In this document: in pieces, positions 7,004 to 64,000 of the stretch
Layout: each line of letters begins with the position of its first letter
Numbering within the stretch: the stretch's first letter is position 1
Virus record (IMG/VR): IMGVR_UViG_3300048930_000409
Coordinates: 12,212-76,211 of that record
Direction: 5' to 3' (one strand)
DNA length: 64,000 nt
Source of the DNA: a virus
The notes under the pieces: model-generated
The model's database searches: none
What the model saw: the letters and a program-made list of their open reading frames with translations, nothing else
What the model was told of the DNA's origin: nothing
Translations under genes and position numbers: made by a program

Positions 7004-7537
7004 ATGGCAGTCGAGACCACCCCCACCCGAAAGCTCGGGTCCATCAAGACCGTCGCCAAGAAGGCGGCCCCGGCCCCCGCCCCGAAGACCAAGGCCAAGA
7101 AGGTCGCCCCGGCCGCCGCGCCCGCCGTCGAGGCCAAGGCCGCCAAGACGCCGGCCGCGCCTCGCGAGCGCAAGACCGAGGGTCCGCGCGGTGCTCGCGG
7201 CATGGTGGGCGTGACGTCCGGCCTGTCCATCGCGGCGTTTCAGAACGAGTTGATGCGGAAGAACTTCCGCGCCAAGCTCACCGACGCGCAGCTGGCCGAG
7301 GCCATGCGCGTGGAGTTCCCGAGCGCCATCGCCTACACCGAGAAGCACGTGGCGGGCATCCGCTCGGGCTACAACACCGGCGCCCGTGGCAACGAGAAGC
7401 CCGACACGCCGCTGCCGCGTTTCGGCGAGGACGGCAAGCCGGTCACGGCGCGTGGCAAGGCGCCCAAGGAGCCCAAGGCCGAGAAGGCCGAGAAGGCGCC
7501 GAAGGCGAAGGTCACGACCAAGACCAAGAAGGGCTAG
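7004..7537 (+). CDS. putative DNA-binding protein: H1-like tails plus HTH-like domain (paralog 2)
   Basis: AAGGAG RBS; FQNEL...KLTDAQLAEAMRVEFP...HVAGIRSGYNTG. Confidence 0.8.
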   Translation: MAVETTPTRKLGSIKTVAKKAAPAPAPKTKAKKVAPAAAPAVEAKAAKTPAAPRERKTEGPRGARGMVGVTSGLSIAAFQNELMRKNFRAKLTDAQLAEAMRVEFPSAIAYTEKHVAGIRSGYNTGARGNEKPDTPLPRFGEDGKPVTARGKAPKEPKAEKAEKAPKAKVTTKTKKG

Positions 7538-12070: not shown

Positions 12071-12438
12071 CCCGCGAAGCCGCCCAGTCCGCGGCCCGCG
12101 CCCTGCTCGACGCGATGGCGGGGACGACGCCAAAGGGATGCTCTTACACAGCCCCGACATTCGGCGCGAATTACCCGGATGGCGTGTGTGTCGAGGGCTA
12201 CTTGTGGGATGCCGACTCCGGCGACTCAGACGGAGATGGATGGGTTTACACGAGCGGCGGAGAGATCCCGTGCCCGTTCTGTAACCGAGGCGCGGCCATC
12301 GAGGCGTGCGCGGAGGAGATGGCTTTCGACAGCCCGAACGAGCGCCACAGGTCGCACCACTTCAGGAAGCGGGCCGAGAAGCGCATCGACACGCACCTGC
12401 ACGACATGCAGCTTCGCTACGGACCGTTCAGGCGATGA
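12067..12438 (+). CDS. hypothetical protein with Cys motifs
   Basis: FGANYPDGVCVEGYLWDADS...PCPFCN; ATGA overlap. Confidence 0.65.
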   Translation: MTREAAQSAARALLDAMAGTTPKGCSYTAPTFGANYPDGVCVEGYLWDADSGDSDGDGWVYTSGGEIPCPFCNRGAAIEACAEEMAFDSPNERHRSHHFRKRAEKRIDTHLHDMQLRYGPFRR

Positions 12439-13462: not shown

Positions 13463-14320
13463 GTGAACTATACTGAAGAGATCGTCATCATCGGCGGCGG
13501 CATGGTCGGGCGCGTAGCCCAGCGATACATGCCGGATGCCTTGATTCTGGATTGGGGGCCGCCCCCGGTCGCCACGCCCCGGCCACAGACGTACGGCGCT
13601 ATCTACTGGTGGGAGCCAGTTGCCGACCTGCCGTGTGTCCAGTTCCAGGTCCTGACCACCATCGACGGCGAGACGCCCACCCCCGAGGGCATTCGCGCGT
13701 ACAAGGAACGCGTGGGCAAGGGATTCGAGGTCCAGACCCGGCCCGATGCCGTCGCCCGGCAGTTCCAGCCGCTGTCGCACGGGTATGCGCCGACGTCGTT
13801 CCCAGCGCCGTCCCGCATCATGTACCGCGCCAGAGTCGAGCGTATCGACCCCGACGTCCGCATGCTGCACATGGTGAACGGGGACACGTACCTGTACACA
13901 CACCTGGTGTCGACTATCCCGCTGCCGGCGCTGCTGAAGATGCTGCCGTTCGACGCCGTCGATCAGTTCGAGCATATGGAGTTCCGGTCGCGCCCCATCT
14001 TTGTCACGGTTGCTCCTGACGACCATGAAGCCCGCACCGTGCTCCAGGTCAACTACTCGACGACGGGCAATGCTTACCGCGAGACGCGGCATCTGGACGG
14101 GTCCACCCATCGGGAGTATGCTTCGGCGCCGATGTACACCGAGTTGCCCGTGAAAAAGCTGGTGCCGGGGCGCATCTACGACGCTTTGCAATCCGCCGAA
14201 CTGTTGCTGCACCTGCGTGGGATGGCCATCCACAGCTTCGGCCGCTATGGTCGGTGGGACTCGGACGAGTTGCTGCACATGACCGACGCCCAGCTCCGGA
14301 CGTTCGCGTCACTTCTCTAG
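13463..14320 (+). CDS. FAD-dependent oxidoreductase-like protein (HemY/UDP-galactopyranose mutase-like fold)
   Basis: IVIIGGGMVG Rossmann motif, YTHLVSTIPL, C-terminal FGRYGRW. Confidence 0.7.
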   Translation: MNYTEEIVIIGGGMVGRVAQRYMPDALILDWGPPPVATPRPQTYGAIYWWEPVADLPCVQFQVLTTIDGETPTPEGIRAYKERVGKGFEVQTRPDAVARQFQPLSHGYAPTSFPAPSRIMYRARVERIDPDVRMLHMVNGDTYLYTHLVSTIPLPALLKMLPFDAVDQFEHMEFRSRPIFVTVAPDDHEARTVLQVNYSTTGNAYRETRHLDGSTHREYASAPMYTELPVKKLVPGRIYDALQSAELLLHLRGMAIHSFGRYGRWDSDELLHMTDAQLRTFASLL

Positions 14321-14328
14321 GAGACATC

Positions 14329-14463
14329 ATGAAGATACTTCGTGCCCTTTGGCGCCTGATCGTCAGCGACGACAAGCCATTCAGTCAGGAATGGATGGAT
14401 TCCCTCAAGTACGACCGCCAGGGATGGGCGGACGCCCCCTCATGGAAGAGGCTGGGACGATGA
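14329..14463 (+). CDS. small hypothetical protein
   Basis: AGGAG RBS; ATGA overlap. Confidence 0.5.
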   Translation: MKILRALWRLIVSDDKPFSQEWMDSLKYDRQGWADAPSWKRLGR

Positions 14464-15431
14464 GCGAGTGGGGAAAGATCTGGCACGACCAGTACGGGTT
14501 CAATCGGAAGTTTCGGCCCGACCCCGAGACGGACGCGGAACGAGCCGAGCAGGTCAAGGACATTGCCCTGTTGATGCAGTCTGAGATCCATGAGTTGCTC
14601 CAGACCGTGGCGTGGAAGAAGCATCGGAAGGACACCCGGCACCGCCCGAACATGGCGCATAGCCATGAAGAACTCACGGACATCTTCAAGTACTTCGTAA
14701 CGCTGTGCAACCTGTTTGATGTCACGCCAGAAGCGCTCCAGCGCTTGTACTGGGCTAAGTCGGCCGTGTGCGAGCAGCGATATGTCGAAGAGTGGGTGTC
14801 CGACTACGCGCGGGGCAACCTGCGGGCCAAGGTGGCCATCGTCGACCTGGACAACGTCATCTTTGACTACATCGATCACTTCGGCAACTTCCTGTACCTG
14901 CAGCCCCTGGGCGACGACGTACGGCTGACTCTGATTCGCCTGATCGGCGAACGCAAGTGGATCAGCGCCGAGTCGACAGGCATTCCGGTGTCGGTGTTCG
15001 AGGCGTACAAGCACATGTACCGGACCAGCGGCGCGAAGGCGCACCTGCCCTTGATGCCGTACGCCAAGGAATTTATGCAGGCGCTTCGCGGGTTGGGATA
15101 CGTCATCATCGTTGTCACGTCACGGCCGATTGACCGCTACCCGAACCTGATGATGGACACGATTGCCAGTCTGAACCGACACGGCCTGCCGTACGACCAC
15201 GTCTGGCACGGCCCGTCAAAGAAAACCGTCCTCGTCGAACGGCTGTCGCCGATGCCGTCGCAGATCTTCGCGATCGACGATGACCCGAAGTATGTCCAGG
15301 AATACGTCAGCCTGGGCATTCCTGTCTTCCATGTGTTGAACGGAGGGACGACCCCGCTGACACAGACGGTCGGGCGCGTACCCGTCGCCGACCTGGAAGA
15401 TGCGTTGAACTGCCTGCACCTGATCGGATAG
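14460..15431 (+). CDS. all-alpha dNTP pyrophosphohydrolase (dimeric dUTPase/MazG-like) fused to a HAD 5'-nucleotidase-like domain
   Basis: SEIHELL..VAWKKH...EELTD; then DLDNV, VTSR, IDDD HAD motifs. Confidence 0.85.
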   Translation: MSEWGKIWHDQYGFNRKFRPDPETDAERAEQVKDIALLMQSEIHELLQTVAWKKHRKDTRHRPNMAHSHEELTDIFKYFVTLCNLFDVTPEALQRLYWAKSAVCEQRYVEEWVSDYARGNLRAKVAIVDLDNVIFDYIDHFGNFLYLQPLGDDVRLTLIRLIGERKWISAESTGIPVSVFEAYKHMYRTSGAKAHLPLMPYAKEFMQALRGLGYVIIVVTSRPIDRYPNLMMDTIASLNRHGLPYDHVWHGPSKKTVLVERLSPMPSQIFAIDDDPKYVQEYVSLGIPVFHVLNGGTTPLTQTVGRVPVADLEDALNCLHLIG

Positions 15432-15436
15432 CACCC

Positions 15437-16591
15437 ATGCCTGACTACGCTGACGCGGGCCACCGCCCGCACGCCGACCACCGGGGGGAGACCCCTGACT
15501 TCAAGATCACGAATGGCCCCGAGTCCATTTCCGTGACGCTGGACACCTGGGGGCCTCGCGACTACTACTCCGCGATGTTCGACTACCTCCAGTCGAACTG
15601 GGGCGGGGCGCCGTCGCGGATTCAGGAGGCGTTGGACCACCCAGAAATTGACGTCGACCACGATGTCGAAGTGTACCTCGACGCGTGCTTCGGCGGGCGC
15701 ACACTCCAGCAAGTGTTGGAGGGCATCACGTTCTGGTTCACCATCGACGGCGTAACTCGCGCCATGACTCATGAGATGGTGCGTGCTCGGTTCGCCGCGT
15801 TCATGCAGCATGGCGGGCGCGACAACGACTGGCGCCATCGGGACTGGACCATGCCCGAGACGATCCGCCGGGCCTCAGGCGCTCGCATGCCGCCGCATCC
15901 CACAGCGCCCTGGGACGGCAAACGAGGAAAAGACCGAGTCGACGCCAAGAACCAGTGGCTGAGAGAACAGCTTGACGCCGACCCGACACTCCGGTGGACG
16001 TGTATCACCGACCACCAGCCTGTCGAAGCGCTGCTCGGCGCCTACGACGAAATCCTGCCCGATGACCGGTTCGGGTTGCAGGATGTCATCGAACACCACC
16101 TCCGTGAAGGCAAGCGCATCTACGCCGCGCTGGTCGACGCAGGCATACCGTGGCAGGACGCGCGGCGGCTGCTGCCCATCGGCACGCAGACGTACATCCA
16201 CGGGATTTACAACTTCATTTCGTTGCGCGACTTCCTGGCCAACCGGATGGAGTTCATCATGGACTGGGAAATCAACTGCGTCGCGCAGCTGATGTACCGC
16301 GAGATCCTGATGAAGTGCCCGCCTCTCATCGGCAAGTACCTGGGGTCGCACTCCGACCGCCAGGGCCGTGCCGCGTTCGCCGGACTGGACTCGTGGCCCC
16401 CGGACATGAAGTACCAGCCCACGTTCGAGCAGGAAGACCCCGTGCTGACGCCGCGCCAGCATCGCCGTGAGCAGATGCCGTTCTGGGTCCTGGCCCAGTC
16501 GTCGTTGGACGGCGGGCCGGTGAAGTGGATTCCCACGAACGGCACCTACCCCCACGACCATCCCGACGCCCCCAAGCCGAGGACTCGGTGA
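15437..16591 (+). CDS. divergent ThyX (flavin-dependent thymidylate synthase) family protein
   Basis: FTIDGVTRAMTHEMVRAR, GIPWQDARRLLP, FLANR..WEI match the ThyX fold; RHRx7S signature altered to RARx7G. Confidence 0.8.
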   Translation: MPDYADAGHRPHADHRGETPDFKITNGPESISVTLDTWGPRDYYSAMFDYLQSNWGGAPSRIQEALDHPEIDVDHDVEVYLDACFGGRTLQQVLEGITFWFTIDGVTRAMTHEMVRARFAAFMQHGGRDNDWRHRDWTMPETIRRASGARMPPHPTAPWDGKRGKDRVDAKNQWLREQLDADPTLRWTCITDHQPVEALLGAYDEILPDDRFGLQDVIEHHLREGKRIYAALVDAGIPWQDARRLLPIGTQTYIHGIYNFISLRDFLANRMEFIMDWEINCVAQLMYREILMKCPPLIGKYLGSHSDRQGRAAFAGLDSWPPDMKYQPTFEQEDPVLTPRQHRREQMPFWVLAQSSLDGGPVKWIPTNGTYPHDHPDAPKPRTR

Positions 16592-25317: not shown

Positions 25318-25673
25318 CGCCTCACAAACGAGCCGGGTTGGTTGGGCTGGTCGCGTTGTTCTTCATCGCGTCCGTCTACGATGCGCGACAGTACAAGTGG
25401 GAGCGGGATGAACTGCGCCGGATGCTGGACGAGTCGTATGACATGAACTGGCGACTGATGCAGGACTGCCCGTCGGTGGCACCGTCGGGATCGCTGGCCG
25501 GGGAGGGCGTGCGATTGGAAAAGCCGTCCTGCCCCGAGTCCGGATGGTTTCTGGTTGACGGCCGTCTGGAGGGACGTGACTGCGAGGGAAAGGTTACGGT
25601 TGTGTTCGGACCGGGGGATGTGGGCGTCGGACGTGTTCCCGCGATGCCGGTCTTACGTCCTGCAGAACCCTAA
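25314..25673 (+). CDS. membrane-anchored hypothetical protein
   Basis: GTGA overlap; N-terminal hydrophobic helix. Confidence 0.5.
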   Translation: MTPHKRAGLVGLVALFFIASVYDARQYKWERDELRRMLDESYDMNWRLMQDCPSVAPSGSLAGEGVRLEKPSCPESGWFLVDGRLEGRDCEGKVTVVFGPGDVGVGRVPAMPVLRPAEP

Positions 25674-25748
25674 GGGCGACGTTCGGGGGTCCGGACATAC
25701 CATGGGGGCGGCCCCCACCCCCGCGCCCCGCATATGCGTCTGCAGGAC
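25657..25748 (-). promoter_or_regulatory. CTGCAG-box element E2
   Basis: GTCCTGCAGAAC-CCTAAG...TCGGGGGTCCGGACATACCATGGG...CGTCTGCAGGAC. Confidence 0.65.
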
Positions 25749-45625: not shown

Positions 45626-45707
45626 GTTCTGCAGGACGCTAAGACGGGCGATCGGGGGTCCGGCCATACCACGGGCCACCCCCGGCGTCGCAAACGTCCT
45701 GCAGGAC
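45626..45707 (-). promoter_or_regulatory. CTGCAG-box element E3
   Basis: GTTCTGCAGGAC-GCTAAG...TCGGGGGTCCGGCCATACCACGGGCC...GTCCTGCAGGAC, intergenic upstream of 45544. Confidence 0.7.
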
Positions 45708-61386: not shown

Positions 61387-61433
61387 TATGCACCGTAGTG
61401 GTGGACGTGTCAACCGGGGAATATGTGGAATAA

Positions 61434-61670
61434 GGGGGGCGTTTCCGATTCGGTCTTCGCCCCCTACCCCCCCCCGCCACCCCCGGACCGCCCCGTTCCT
61501 TTTCTCTTTCTTATTCTATATATACCATTTTTACATTAAGTCTTTAAAAAGAAGAAGAAGGGAGGGGAAAAAAGAAGGAATGTGGGGGGGTCCGGACGGG
61601 GGGAGGGGGGTGTAAGGTTTGTGGGAAACGCCCCCCATTTACCGAAGGCACCCGAAGACCCCCGATTTTG
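61434..61670. other. origin-like quasi-palindrome B
   Basis: 13-bp inverted repeat 61434-61446/61624-61636 around C-rich, AT-rich and G-rich blocks. Confidence 0.55.
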
Positions 61671-61914
61671 CCGTAAAACTCAGGGTTTCGTGAAACTGCC
61701 TTAGGAAAATCGCGAATTGTGGGGGTAAAAATCCAGGCGTTTCAGGCCTGTCCGGGAGTGATATACCCCAGAACGGGCTGGTCATCGACCAGTGACCAGT
61801 GCCGGATTTTTGCTTAAGGTCCGAGGCAGGTGCTAATGGTGTACCGGGCGCCGCGACGGCCCCGGACGCAAAAACGGTCACCGGTGGGTGACCCCAACGA
61901 ACGGACACCGCATC

Positions 61915-62592
61915 ATGGCACGCGCCACCACCCGCACCCGCACCACGACCACGACCCCGGCCATCATCGACACCACGCCCGACGTGTCGGTCGACGTCGC
62001 CACCCCGACCGCCGTCGTCATCGCCGACCCCGTCGACGTCGTCGCGACCACGGCCGACGTGGTCCCGTTCGCCGACGGGTACCGGTTGGCGGTCGTCACC
62101 GCGACCCGCACGGTCGGGGACGCCGTGGAACCCCGGTTCACCCCGGACATCGTCGCGGCGTTGACGACCGCGCCGATGATCGCCATCGCCGCCGGCATGG
62201 ACGCCGTCCGCGACGTCGTCCGGACCCCGGCCGACATCGACGCCGCCGTGACCCGGTTCGACGCGGCGGCCGCCGCGTACCACGTGCCGACGTCCGCGAC
62301 CACGGTCAACGTCGGGCGGTACACCGGCCGGAAAATCATGGACGGCCAAAACGTGATGTACGCCATCGCCGCCATCGTCGGCGCACCCGACGCGGCCATC
62401 GCCGTGGCGTGGCGGGCGGAATGGCCGGGCGCCCGGTGCAATTTCGCGGTCCGCAACGACCACGTGACCACGACGCGCCCCGTCGTCAACCGTGGCGCCC
62501 ATGGGTGGACCAACGGACACGGCGGCACGGCCGACGTGGTTCGCGCGTGGGGTGGCCCGTTCCGGTGCCACGACGTGAAACCGAACGCGTAA
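61915..62592 (+). CDS. HTH-like paralog 3, encoded without any AG/CT
   Basis: VGRYTGRKIMDGQN...PDAAIAVAWRAEWP.A...HV..TR..VNRGAHG aligns to paralogs 1 and 2; followed by a hairpin. Confidence 0.75.
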   Translation: MARATTRTRTTTTTPAIIDTTPDVSVDVATPTAVVIADPVDVVATTADVVPFADGYRLAVVTATRTVGDAVEPRFTPDIVAALTTAPMIAIAAGMDAVRDVVRTPADIDAAVTRFDAAAAAYHVPTSATTVNVGRYTGRKIMDGQNVMYAIAAIVGAPDAAIAVAWRAEWPGARCNFAVRNDHVTTTRPVVNRGAHGWTNGHGGTADVVRAWGGPFRCHDVKPNA

Positions 62593-62604
62593 CCGTTCGG
62601 TGAC

Positions 62605-62636
62605 GGGTGGGGGCCGCGCGGCCCCCGCCCATGTTC
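62605..62636 (+). terminator. GC hairpin after paralog 3
   Basis: GGGTGGGGGCCG-CG-CGGCCCCCGCCC; similar hairpin at 62887-62910. Confidence 0.55.
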
Positions 62637-62659
62637 AACACGTAACCATCCGGTGATCC

Positions 62660-62879
62660 ATGCCCACCCCCGTTCCCGACCACGCACGTCGTGTTTACCG
62701 TCATCGATGCCGATGGCACCACCACCAAATCGTTCCCGACCACCGATGGCACGTTCGCCGCATATGGCGCCATGGCCGAATGGGCATCCGAACACGCCGC
62801 AGCCCGTGACACGTTTGTCACCGTGGTGTCTCCCATCGGGATCACGTTTACCGTGCCCAATCCGTACAATTACCGATGA
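62660..62879 (+). CDS. small hypothetical protein, apparent +1 indel near the start
   Basis: ATG 62660 joins ORF 62691-62879 if one C is removed from the C5 run. Confidence 0.4.
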
Positions 62880-62936
62880 CCCATTCGGGCGGGGGCCGCC
62901 CCCCCCGCCCATTCCGCAGTCCACGGAGCGCCCATC

Positions 62937-63889: not shown

Positions 63890-63905
63890 CGTTCCACGTG
63901 GAACA
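63890..63905. promoter_or_regulatory. parS: parS site (15/16 match)
   Basis: CGTTCCACGTGGAACA. Confidence 0.8.
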
Positions 63906-63930
63906 ATCGGTGTGGTACGGATGAGGTGGA

Positions 63931-63946
63931 TGTTCCACGTGGAACA
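63931..63946. promoter_or_regulatory. parS: parS site (perfect palindrome)
   Basis: TGTTCCACGTGGAACA fits the bacterial chromosomal parS consensus. Confidence 0.85.
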
Positions 63947-64000
63947 ATGATGGGTAGGGCTTGTTCTGCAGAAGCTGCCTGACCATCCGTGTTGGCGGGG

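Follow-up and report, generated by a model that had tools for sequence, protein, structure and literature searches.

An almost complete purge of the AG/CT dinucleotide step from a two-gene unit of a tailed phage

Avoidance of short sequence motifs is a phenomenon of a known kind. Messages that lack ACA escape MazF, RegB of phage T4 cuts at GGAG, and the leading end of T7, with gene 0.3, is a unit whose reading is expected to come first. In T5-like phages, resistance to restriction requires that the region of DNA transferred first lack sites (PMC10644984). Two-letter contexts are read, with near-full occupancy, in phages whose DNA is hypermodified: thymidine is modified at TG/TC (PMC6449724, PMC13458397), and glycosylated 5hmC occurs in a GpC context (bioRxiv 10.1101/2023.12.21.572611). 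A complete purge of a two-letter step, limited to one unit and made at the expense of the protein, is undescribed in the literature searched, in which no dinucleotide-free gene unit was found. The locus analyzed here carries such a purge, of AG and its reverse complement CT.

The window is a stretch of 64,000 nt, positions 12212–76211 of a 76,211-bp viral record that CheckV rates as complete. Its contig ends share ~110 nt, as those of a circular assembly would, and inside this overlap (63891–63948 of the window and 1–110 of the genome) lie two GTTCCACGTGGAACAAT words, 41 nt apart and parS-like. The phage is tailed: the minus strand encodes the tape-measure protein, large terminase and portal, and the plus strand encodes the helicase, DNA polymerase and primase. 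Among cultured phages the closest terminase is only 27% identical. A GH108 endolysin is present, a type typical of phages of Gram-negative hosts. The purged unit lies between leftward packaging-side genes, the last of which ends at 61413, and rightward early genes that continue over the contig junction. About 220 bp upstream of the unit is an imperfect palindrome of ~140 nt (61470–61612), with one arm almost pure C/T, the other pure A/G and an AT-rich center containing TTTTACATTAA; folded as DNA it reaches −37 kcal/mol (z = −3.3), and its conservation extends to all four relatives. The palindrome is a possible origin or packaging site. An Rfam search of the region returned sub-threshold plant miRNA models only, which reflect the palindrome (at 61432–61638).

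An earlier note on this DNA, made from its letters, had reported a 966-nt stretch at 61835–62800 with neither AG nor CT, where composition would predict on the order of 100 sites. The count bears this out to the nucleotide: AG = 0 and CT = 0, against 98.4 sites predicted from local base composition, with the preceding CT starting at 61833 and the following AG at 62801. Between the promoter-like box and the second of two hairpins (61834–62918; 1,085 bp) only two sites remain, one AG (62801) and one CT (62830), compared to 113 expected from composition. The reversed steps are untouched, as the same note had observed: GA and TC occur 56 and 54 times in the core vs. 51 and 48 expected, that is, at or above expectation. 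AC, GT, CG and AT are raised, GG/CC and AA/TT are not enriched, and the GC content of the purged stretch is higher than that of the genome.

A search for rival deserts, which the note had proposed, found nothing comparable. In the whole 76,211-bp genome the next longest AG/CT-free gaps measure 88 bp (62830–62918, adjoining the desert itself) and 69 bp. Under a geometric model the longest gap is expected to be ~97 bp, and the probability of a 968-bp gap is ~5e-37; the AG/CT-free cores of other promoter-like elements, 54–67 bp long, at 2276–2330, 25673–25740 and 45642–45699 are thus within the range of chance. Sliding windows over the genome approach zero AG/CT only at the purged unit and reach their highest density directly downstream of it. 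No other dinucleotide pair has an outlier gap anywhere in the genome, and no other three- or four-letter word is missing from the purged stretch. The banned word is a non-palindromic step of 2 bp, not a restriction-enzyme site of 4–8 bp. General avoidance of palindromes is ruled out, because GTCGAC and GACGTC are present and no longer word is absent. Strand symmetry, together with the lack of any longer missing word, suggests that what is avoided is the AG/CT step of duplex DNA.

The purge operates on three layers: the amino-acid make-up of gene 1, its choice of codons and the junctions between codons. Five amino acids are nearly absent (each at most 1%). Compared to the proteome, Leu falls from 7.7 to 0.9%, Ser from 5.5 to 0.9%, Glu from 5.8 to 0.9%, Lys from 4.7 to 0.9% and Gln from 3.4 to 0.4%, while the shares of Thr, Ala and Val are doubled; Ser thus joins the four residues that the note had singled out. 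Where the rare residues remain they are written, as it had also claimed, with a single codon each: TTG for Leu (2), GAA for Glu (2), AAA for Lys (2) and CAA for Gln (1), with TAA as the stop. Elsewhere the phage prefers CTG, GAG, AAG and CAG. Back-translation of the actual protein with the codon usage of the phage gives 24.7±3.9 sites, with a minimum of 10 in 20,000 trials. Shuffling of synonymous codons within gene 1 leaves a mean of 10.5 sites at codon junctions, always at least three, and zero in none of 20,000 trials. The observed zero thus stands against composition- and codon-aware nulls alike. Approximately 250 nt of non-coding sequence (leader, spacer and hairpins) are likewise without AG/CT. 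Even the ribosome-binding site conforms: the GGAG type, present in about 30 of the 109 predicted genes, is absent from the unit, where only a GGA core precedes the ATG. The unit-wide ban on AG/CT overrides the composition of the protein and even the Shine-Dalgarno sequence.

Analysis of the organization of the unit places the start of the ban in a promoter-like box on the plus strand, at its downstream hexamer (61810–61837: TTGCTT, a 16-nt spacer, GCTAAT). The box is conserved in the alignment of relatives and holds five AG/CT sites in 28 bp; a scan with the sigma-70 consensus did not call it, and it is treated here as a putative promoter. An untranslated leader (61838–61914) follows, in which two GC-rich hairpins flank an invariant CGCAAA motif ahead of the GGA core. 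The leader folds are supported by covariation: in 7 of 12 pairs, both sides have changed and the pairing is retained (hairpin 2 is at 61876–61893). Read on the minus strand, this second hairpin is followed by GTTTTTGCG and is terminator-like, with a run of A that is invariant in the relatives; it could serve to end antisense transcription across the unit. Gene 1 (61915–62592, plus strand) encodes 225 aa, without a match to a known family or fold and with an HTH-like domain at residues ~129–197. Beyond it lie a predicted GC-rich hairpin with an 11-bp stem and no U tract (62605–62630), and ORF2 (62691–62879; 62 aa, no known family). The desert extends over most of ORF2, as the note had stated, and both of the unit's AG/CT sites fall within this ORF. 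A second predicted GC-rich hairpin, with a 9-bp stem (62887–62910), closes the unit, and normal AG/CT density is back 8 nt later.

The flanks are rich in the banned step: the 420 bp upstream contain 38 AG/CT sites, and the 882 bp downstream, the richest part of the genome, contain 133. Between 62990 and 63800 the ratio of observed to expected sites reaches 1.57. This block, non-coding from ~63200, contains five copies of CAGGGAAAGCTCT and many CCGCAG words, and the same words lie 3′ of the purged unit in one relative (L010, below). If the box and the hairpins mark the start and the ends of a transcript – as we suppose – then the ban covers only the part that is transcribed: with five sites in the promoter-like box itself, it is confined to the presumed transcript. 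Three wastewater runs labelled as RNA-Seq each yield a contig of ~1.1 kb (depth 21–60) from a relative ~95% alike, covering just 61804–62611; this variant of the unit also keeps zero sites. Among the sequencing runs none was listed as an RNA holder, and since these contigs reach upstream of the promoter-like box, and their flanks are too diverged to map, they may derive from RNA or from DNA alike.

Eleven close homologs of gene 1 were found, and DNA was available for five of their loci (L005, L006, L008, L009 and L010). The gene in L005 is 91% identical to that of the present genome at the DNA level and lies in an empty stretch of 979 bp; in L008, L009 and L010 identity falls to 67–79%, with empty stretches of 774 bp in L008, at least 400 bp in L009 and 767 bp in L010; two of the three reach a contig edge. 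In all four, as here, the gene contains no AG/CT site. AG and CT disappear together, from the same point, in the present genome, L005 and L010, and avoidance is on both strands in these three and in L008. The comparison with related phages that the note had called for thus agrees in four of the five loci; the fifth, L006, has 12 AG and 36 CT in the gene.

If the absence of sites were a matter of chance, then divergence should have restored them, as a site would arise from one in three of the possible single-base changes in the gene. Yet none of the 57 differences from L005 creates one, for which the probability is 9e-11, and the probability is far smaller for the other pairs. At the positions where L006 has sites, the purged genes carry varied replacements: GT, CG, TT or CC in place of CT, and AC, CG or AA in place of AG. 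Zero sites in diverged relatives and replacements this varied point to site-by-site selection on the transcription unit rather than to chance or to hypermutation of a single type. The latter (A to G, or C to T) is ruled out by the dinucleotide excesses and by the spectrum of replacements. Judged from these comparisons, the purge is maintained by selection in the diverged relatives.

The ban is not tied to one protein. The counterpart of ORF2 in L005 is 86 aa long and greatly diverged, with likeness limited to short C-terminal stretches aligned by eye. It is nevertheless purged, which makes the ban a property of the unit and not of a single protein family. L010 lacks ORF2, and there the ban stops just past a hairpin equivalent to that at 62605–62630, which closes the purged stretch, where a small membrane ORF starts.

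The exceptional locus is informative in its own right. L006 (5861–6642) is diverged to the same degree as the others, and its 91-nt leader is still free of AG/CT, the longest gap of the locus. Within the gene CT is not depleted (36 vs. 25.3 expected from its protein), whereas message-strand AG (CT in the copied strand) is reduced to 12 vs. 22.4±2.9 expected from the protein. With CT normal or raised and AG low, the two halves of the ban are separable, and the asymmetry suggests that copied-strand CT carries the greatest weight. In the tree the L006 protein sits among proteins of purged make-up; its relaxation is for this reason probably secondary, with amino-acid make-up taken as a proxy for the purge.

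Gene 1 has a GC3 of 0.92, and neither it nor ORF2 has a match in Pfam, PHROGs or NCBIfam. Disorder and a high content of Thr and Arg mark the N-terminal 46 residues of the protein, and the remainder is helical. With the AlphaFold model (pLDDT 74, pTM 0.71), Foldseek found nothing below E = 1 in PDB and BFVD, and a wide VIA-align search peaked at Z = 3.5; several small HTH domains aligned over residues 130–220 at Z 2.2–2.6. ESM Atlas returned unnamed or weak rows only. No cultured relative was found among 50,697 phage records by megablast and tblastn, for which the queries were the region, the protein and two distant members of its family. Within the genome, residues ~129–197 are related to the products of genes 724–1293 and 7004–7537 (pairwise E of 3e-4 each). 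These two paralogs match each other at E = 5e-11, and what they have in common with gene 1 is the HTH-like domain (~65 aa) only. Both are written normally, with 57 and 56 AG/CT sites, and both carry lysine-rich (Lys/Ala/Pro) tails resembling histone H1. The product of gene 1 would be an HTH-like regulator. A profile search of 1.84 billion representatives found 44 distant relatives. In about 12 of these Leu, Ser, Glu, Lys and Gln together make up 7–12% of residues, as in the purged genes, and in others 25–34%. Viral-contig scans (P0018, P0026 and P0012), the A3 alignment and two genome-contig scans found no DNA of further family members, so that for the distant ones amino-acid make-up serves only as a proxy for a purge.

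A unit free of AG/CT in this phage and in diverged relatives, at the sacrifice of five amino acids, means that some agent in the infected cell must read the AG/CT step; the pattern fits a unit that needs to work while something does so. The earlier note had proposed a bootstrap gene that must be read from incoming virion DNA, the agent being either a hypermodification of phage DNA or a host enzyme that attacks DNA. The groundwork of that proposal stands: the purge is real, it is held by selection in diverged relatives, and it covers what appears to be one transcription unit, the first rightward one after a divergent control region. No enzyme known to read a sequence context in DNA was found in the genome. 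No TGT/DpdA (PF01702), N6/N4 methyltransferase (PF01555) or C5 methyltransferase (PF00145) is present in the genome, and no kinase, pyrophosphorylase or transglycosylase for DNA hypermodification was found in it; many of its ORFs are without family assignment. Against a DNA-cutting agent stand the AG/CT sites of the promoter-like box and of the 420 bp upstream. One cluster (13463–16591) contains a family-less ORF that has a weak flavin amine-oxidase match (E = 0.08), and a weak dUTPase_2/MazG-HAD fusion beside a divergent ThyX of 384 aa that aligns with solved ThyX only over residues 195–298. The cluster may represent a pyrimidine pathway of an unusual kind, or its ThyX and dUTPase genes may simply supply dTMP in the ordinary way.

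The explanation that we favor, with confidence somewhat short of even, is that the unit is exempt from a mark or lesion placed on DNA in an AG/CT context, one that hinders host RNA polymerase. An agent in the infected cell would mark or damage DNA at the AG/CT step; the likeliest is a context-specific base hypermodification of the phage's own, and a modification imposed by the host is less likely. Such marks would hinder elongation by unaided host RNA polymerase. A unit with no AG/CT from +1 to its terminator would stay ordinary DNA and could be transcribed immediately from incoming virion DNA, before all other genes, and its HTH-like product would then act on the remaining program. Several observations accord with this. 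The concerted ban on both strands fits double-stranded DNA. The AG/CT-rich box and flanks argue against a DNA cutter and favor an agent that acts where polymerase or RNA runs. Depletion of AG only, as in L006, is what a mark on the template-strand pyrimidine would be expected to leave. Hypermodification in two-letter contexts is established in phages, and the divergent ThyX beside the weak dUTPase/HAD fusion, as well as the HTH-like domain with its two normally written paralogs, also count in favor. We infer a reader that acts on DNA, through base modification. Besides the failure to find a modification enzyme with a known DNA context, three points weigh against it. First, the published thymidine enzymes read the base 3′ of T, whereas here it would be the base 5′ of T (in CT), or else A or G in AG would be marked. 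Second, a mark on one base together with a pure block of the template predicts a ban on one strand, so that one more assumption is required for the full two-strand ban seen in four lineages. Third, the conserved AG/CT sites of the promoter-like box would be marked as well.

An agent that acts on RNA is the alternative that survives best, although we consider it unlikely. The transcript would be spared by one or several enzymes with AG and CU as targets, either endoribonucleases or modifiers of RNA – a host abortive-infection toxin, or a phage enzyme that shuts off messages – and the first regulator could thereby still be made or persist. The limits of the ban, from the downstream hexamer to a point past the hairpins, are the limits of an RNA if promoter and terminators are such; the box and flanks are AG/CT-rich, even the GGAG ribosome-binding site has been removed, and the depletion that L006 keeps is of message-strand AG. 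However, AG and CU are reverse complements of each other: that both should be targets is a coincidence for single-stranded RNA and natural for duplex DNA. The GC-rich stems, which would be shielded from a single-strand-specific enzyme, are also without both words, and no RNase known to us combines two such two-letter specificities.

That the unit avoids a DNA-cutting defense, as the first DNA to be injected, with a product that protects the remainder in the manner of T5, seems improbable. The arrangement bears some resemblance: the unit comes just after the conserved 140-nt palindrome between packaging-side and early genes, and, after two small ORFs, it is followed by a repeat-rich non-coding block of ~0.8 kb, which recalls a pre-early segment and stop region. 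Nevertheless, with AG/CT sites throughout the upstream 420 bp, within the box and in the downstream block, a cutter would sever the promoter or detach the unit. The overlap of the contig ends is such as a circular assembly would give, and no bacterial nuclease that reads a 2-bp word is known to us.

Quite improbable, too, is a transcription-coupled mutator, in which damage at AG/CT followed by error-prone repair exhausted the motif with no selection at individual sites. AID-type hypermutation provides a precedent, reading a short word on both strands of transcribed DNA. Here also the word is short, both strands are hit and the limits match the presumed transcribed unit, and continued mutation would hold the sites at zero. 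Such a process is difficult to reconcile with replacements that are diverse and include transversions, with the lack of enrichment of GG/CC and AA/TT, and with GC above that of the genome, not below it. The core of the protein is strongly conserved (65 invariant columns), and L006 has regained 36 CT and retained the gene.

Avoidance of CRISPR PAMs is very improbable. Most type I-E interference PAMs contain AG; a unit without AG/CT has no AAG-type PAM on either strand and would be neither sampled nor targeted, and strand symmetry is what PAMs would lead one to expect. Yet targeting elsewhere in the genome, where AG/CT is normal, would still kill the phage, loss of one trinucleotide would suffice, and the limits match the presumed transcription unit rather than a DNA end. 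Last, a ban on codons whose tRNAs are cleaved or scarce during infection would account for the absence of every codon that contains AG or CT, and it can be given next to no credence, as it is contradicted by the purged codon junctions and by the empty ~250 nt of non-coding sequence.

Five amino acids and a ribosome-binding site have been stripped over ~1 kb, across lineages in which a third of the DNA has changed. Selection that strong implies that each single AG/CT carries a cost, and among the described processes of bacteria or phages none explains so fine-grained a cost within a single transcription unit. A host defense, were that the agent, would be of a new kind, with two-letter specificity. 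Should the agent be a DNA mark, the purged step predicts the sequence context before the chemistry and names a gene to test. A broader proposition – that phages of many lineages keep an exempt, first-read regulator cassette that lacks a step occupied everywhere else by an undescribed AG/CT-context DNA mark, either of the phage or imposed by the host – we hold to be doubtful. Were it true, the purged step would read out, from sequence, the context of an unknown DNA modification or of a dinucleotide-reading defense, and the gene 1 family would be a factor that lets transcription proceed on marked DNA.

How, then, does the locus compare with known systems? It resembles the ACA-less messages that evade MazF in that a short word has been wholly removed from one message by synonymous recoding. 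There, however, the word has at least three letters and is avoided on one strand, whereas here both strands are affected, along with non-coding and paired segments. It resembles the first-step-transfer region of T5 and BF23 (PMC10644984) in being a small, presumably first-read unit free of a word that an agent reads and that the remaining genome contains. The T5 words are host-enzyme sites of 4–8 bp, and the region there is set by DNA entry; here the word is a step of 2 bp, the limits are those of a presumed transcription unit and the flanks are rich in the word. From the hypermodified phages, both the TG/TC type and the GpC type (bioRxiv 10.1101/2023.12.21.572611), it differs in the step itself, AG/CT, and in that enzymes of a modification pathway are absent among the matches; no purged, exempt gene unit in a hypermodified phage was found in the literature searched. 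With both types, the former including the thymidine phages M6, ViI, phiW-14 and SH-Ab 15599 (PMC6449724, PMC13458397), it shares a two-letter context, both strands, and nearly every copy affected, marked there and removed here. Dinucleotide-context hypermodification is the only established process that reads phage DNA genome-wide at two-letter resolution.
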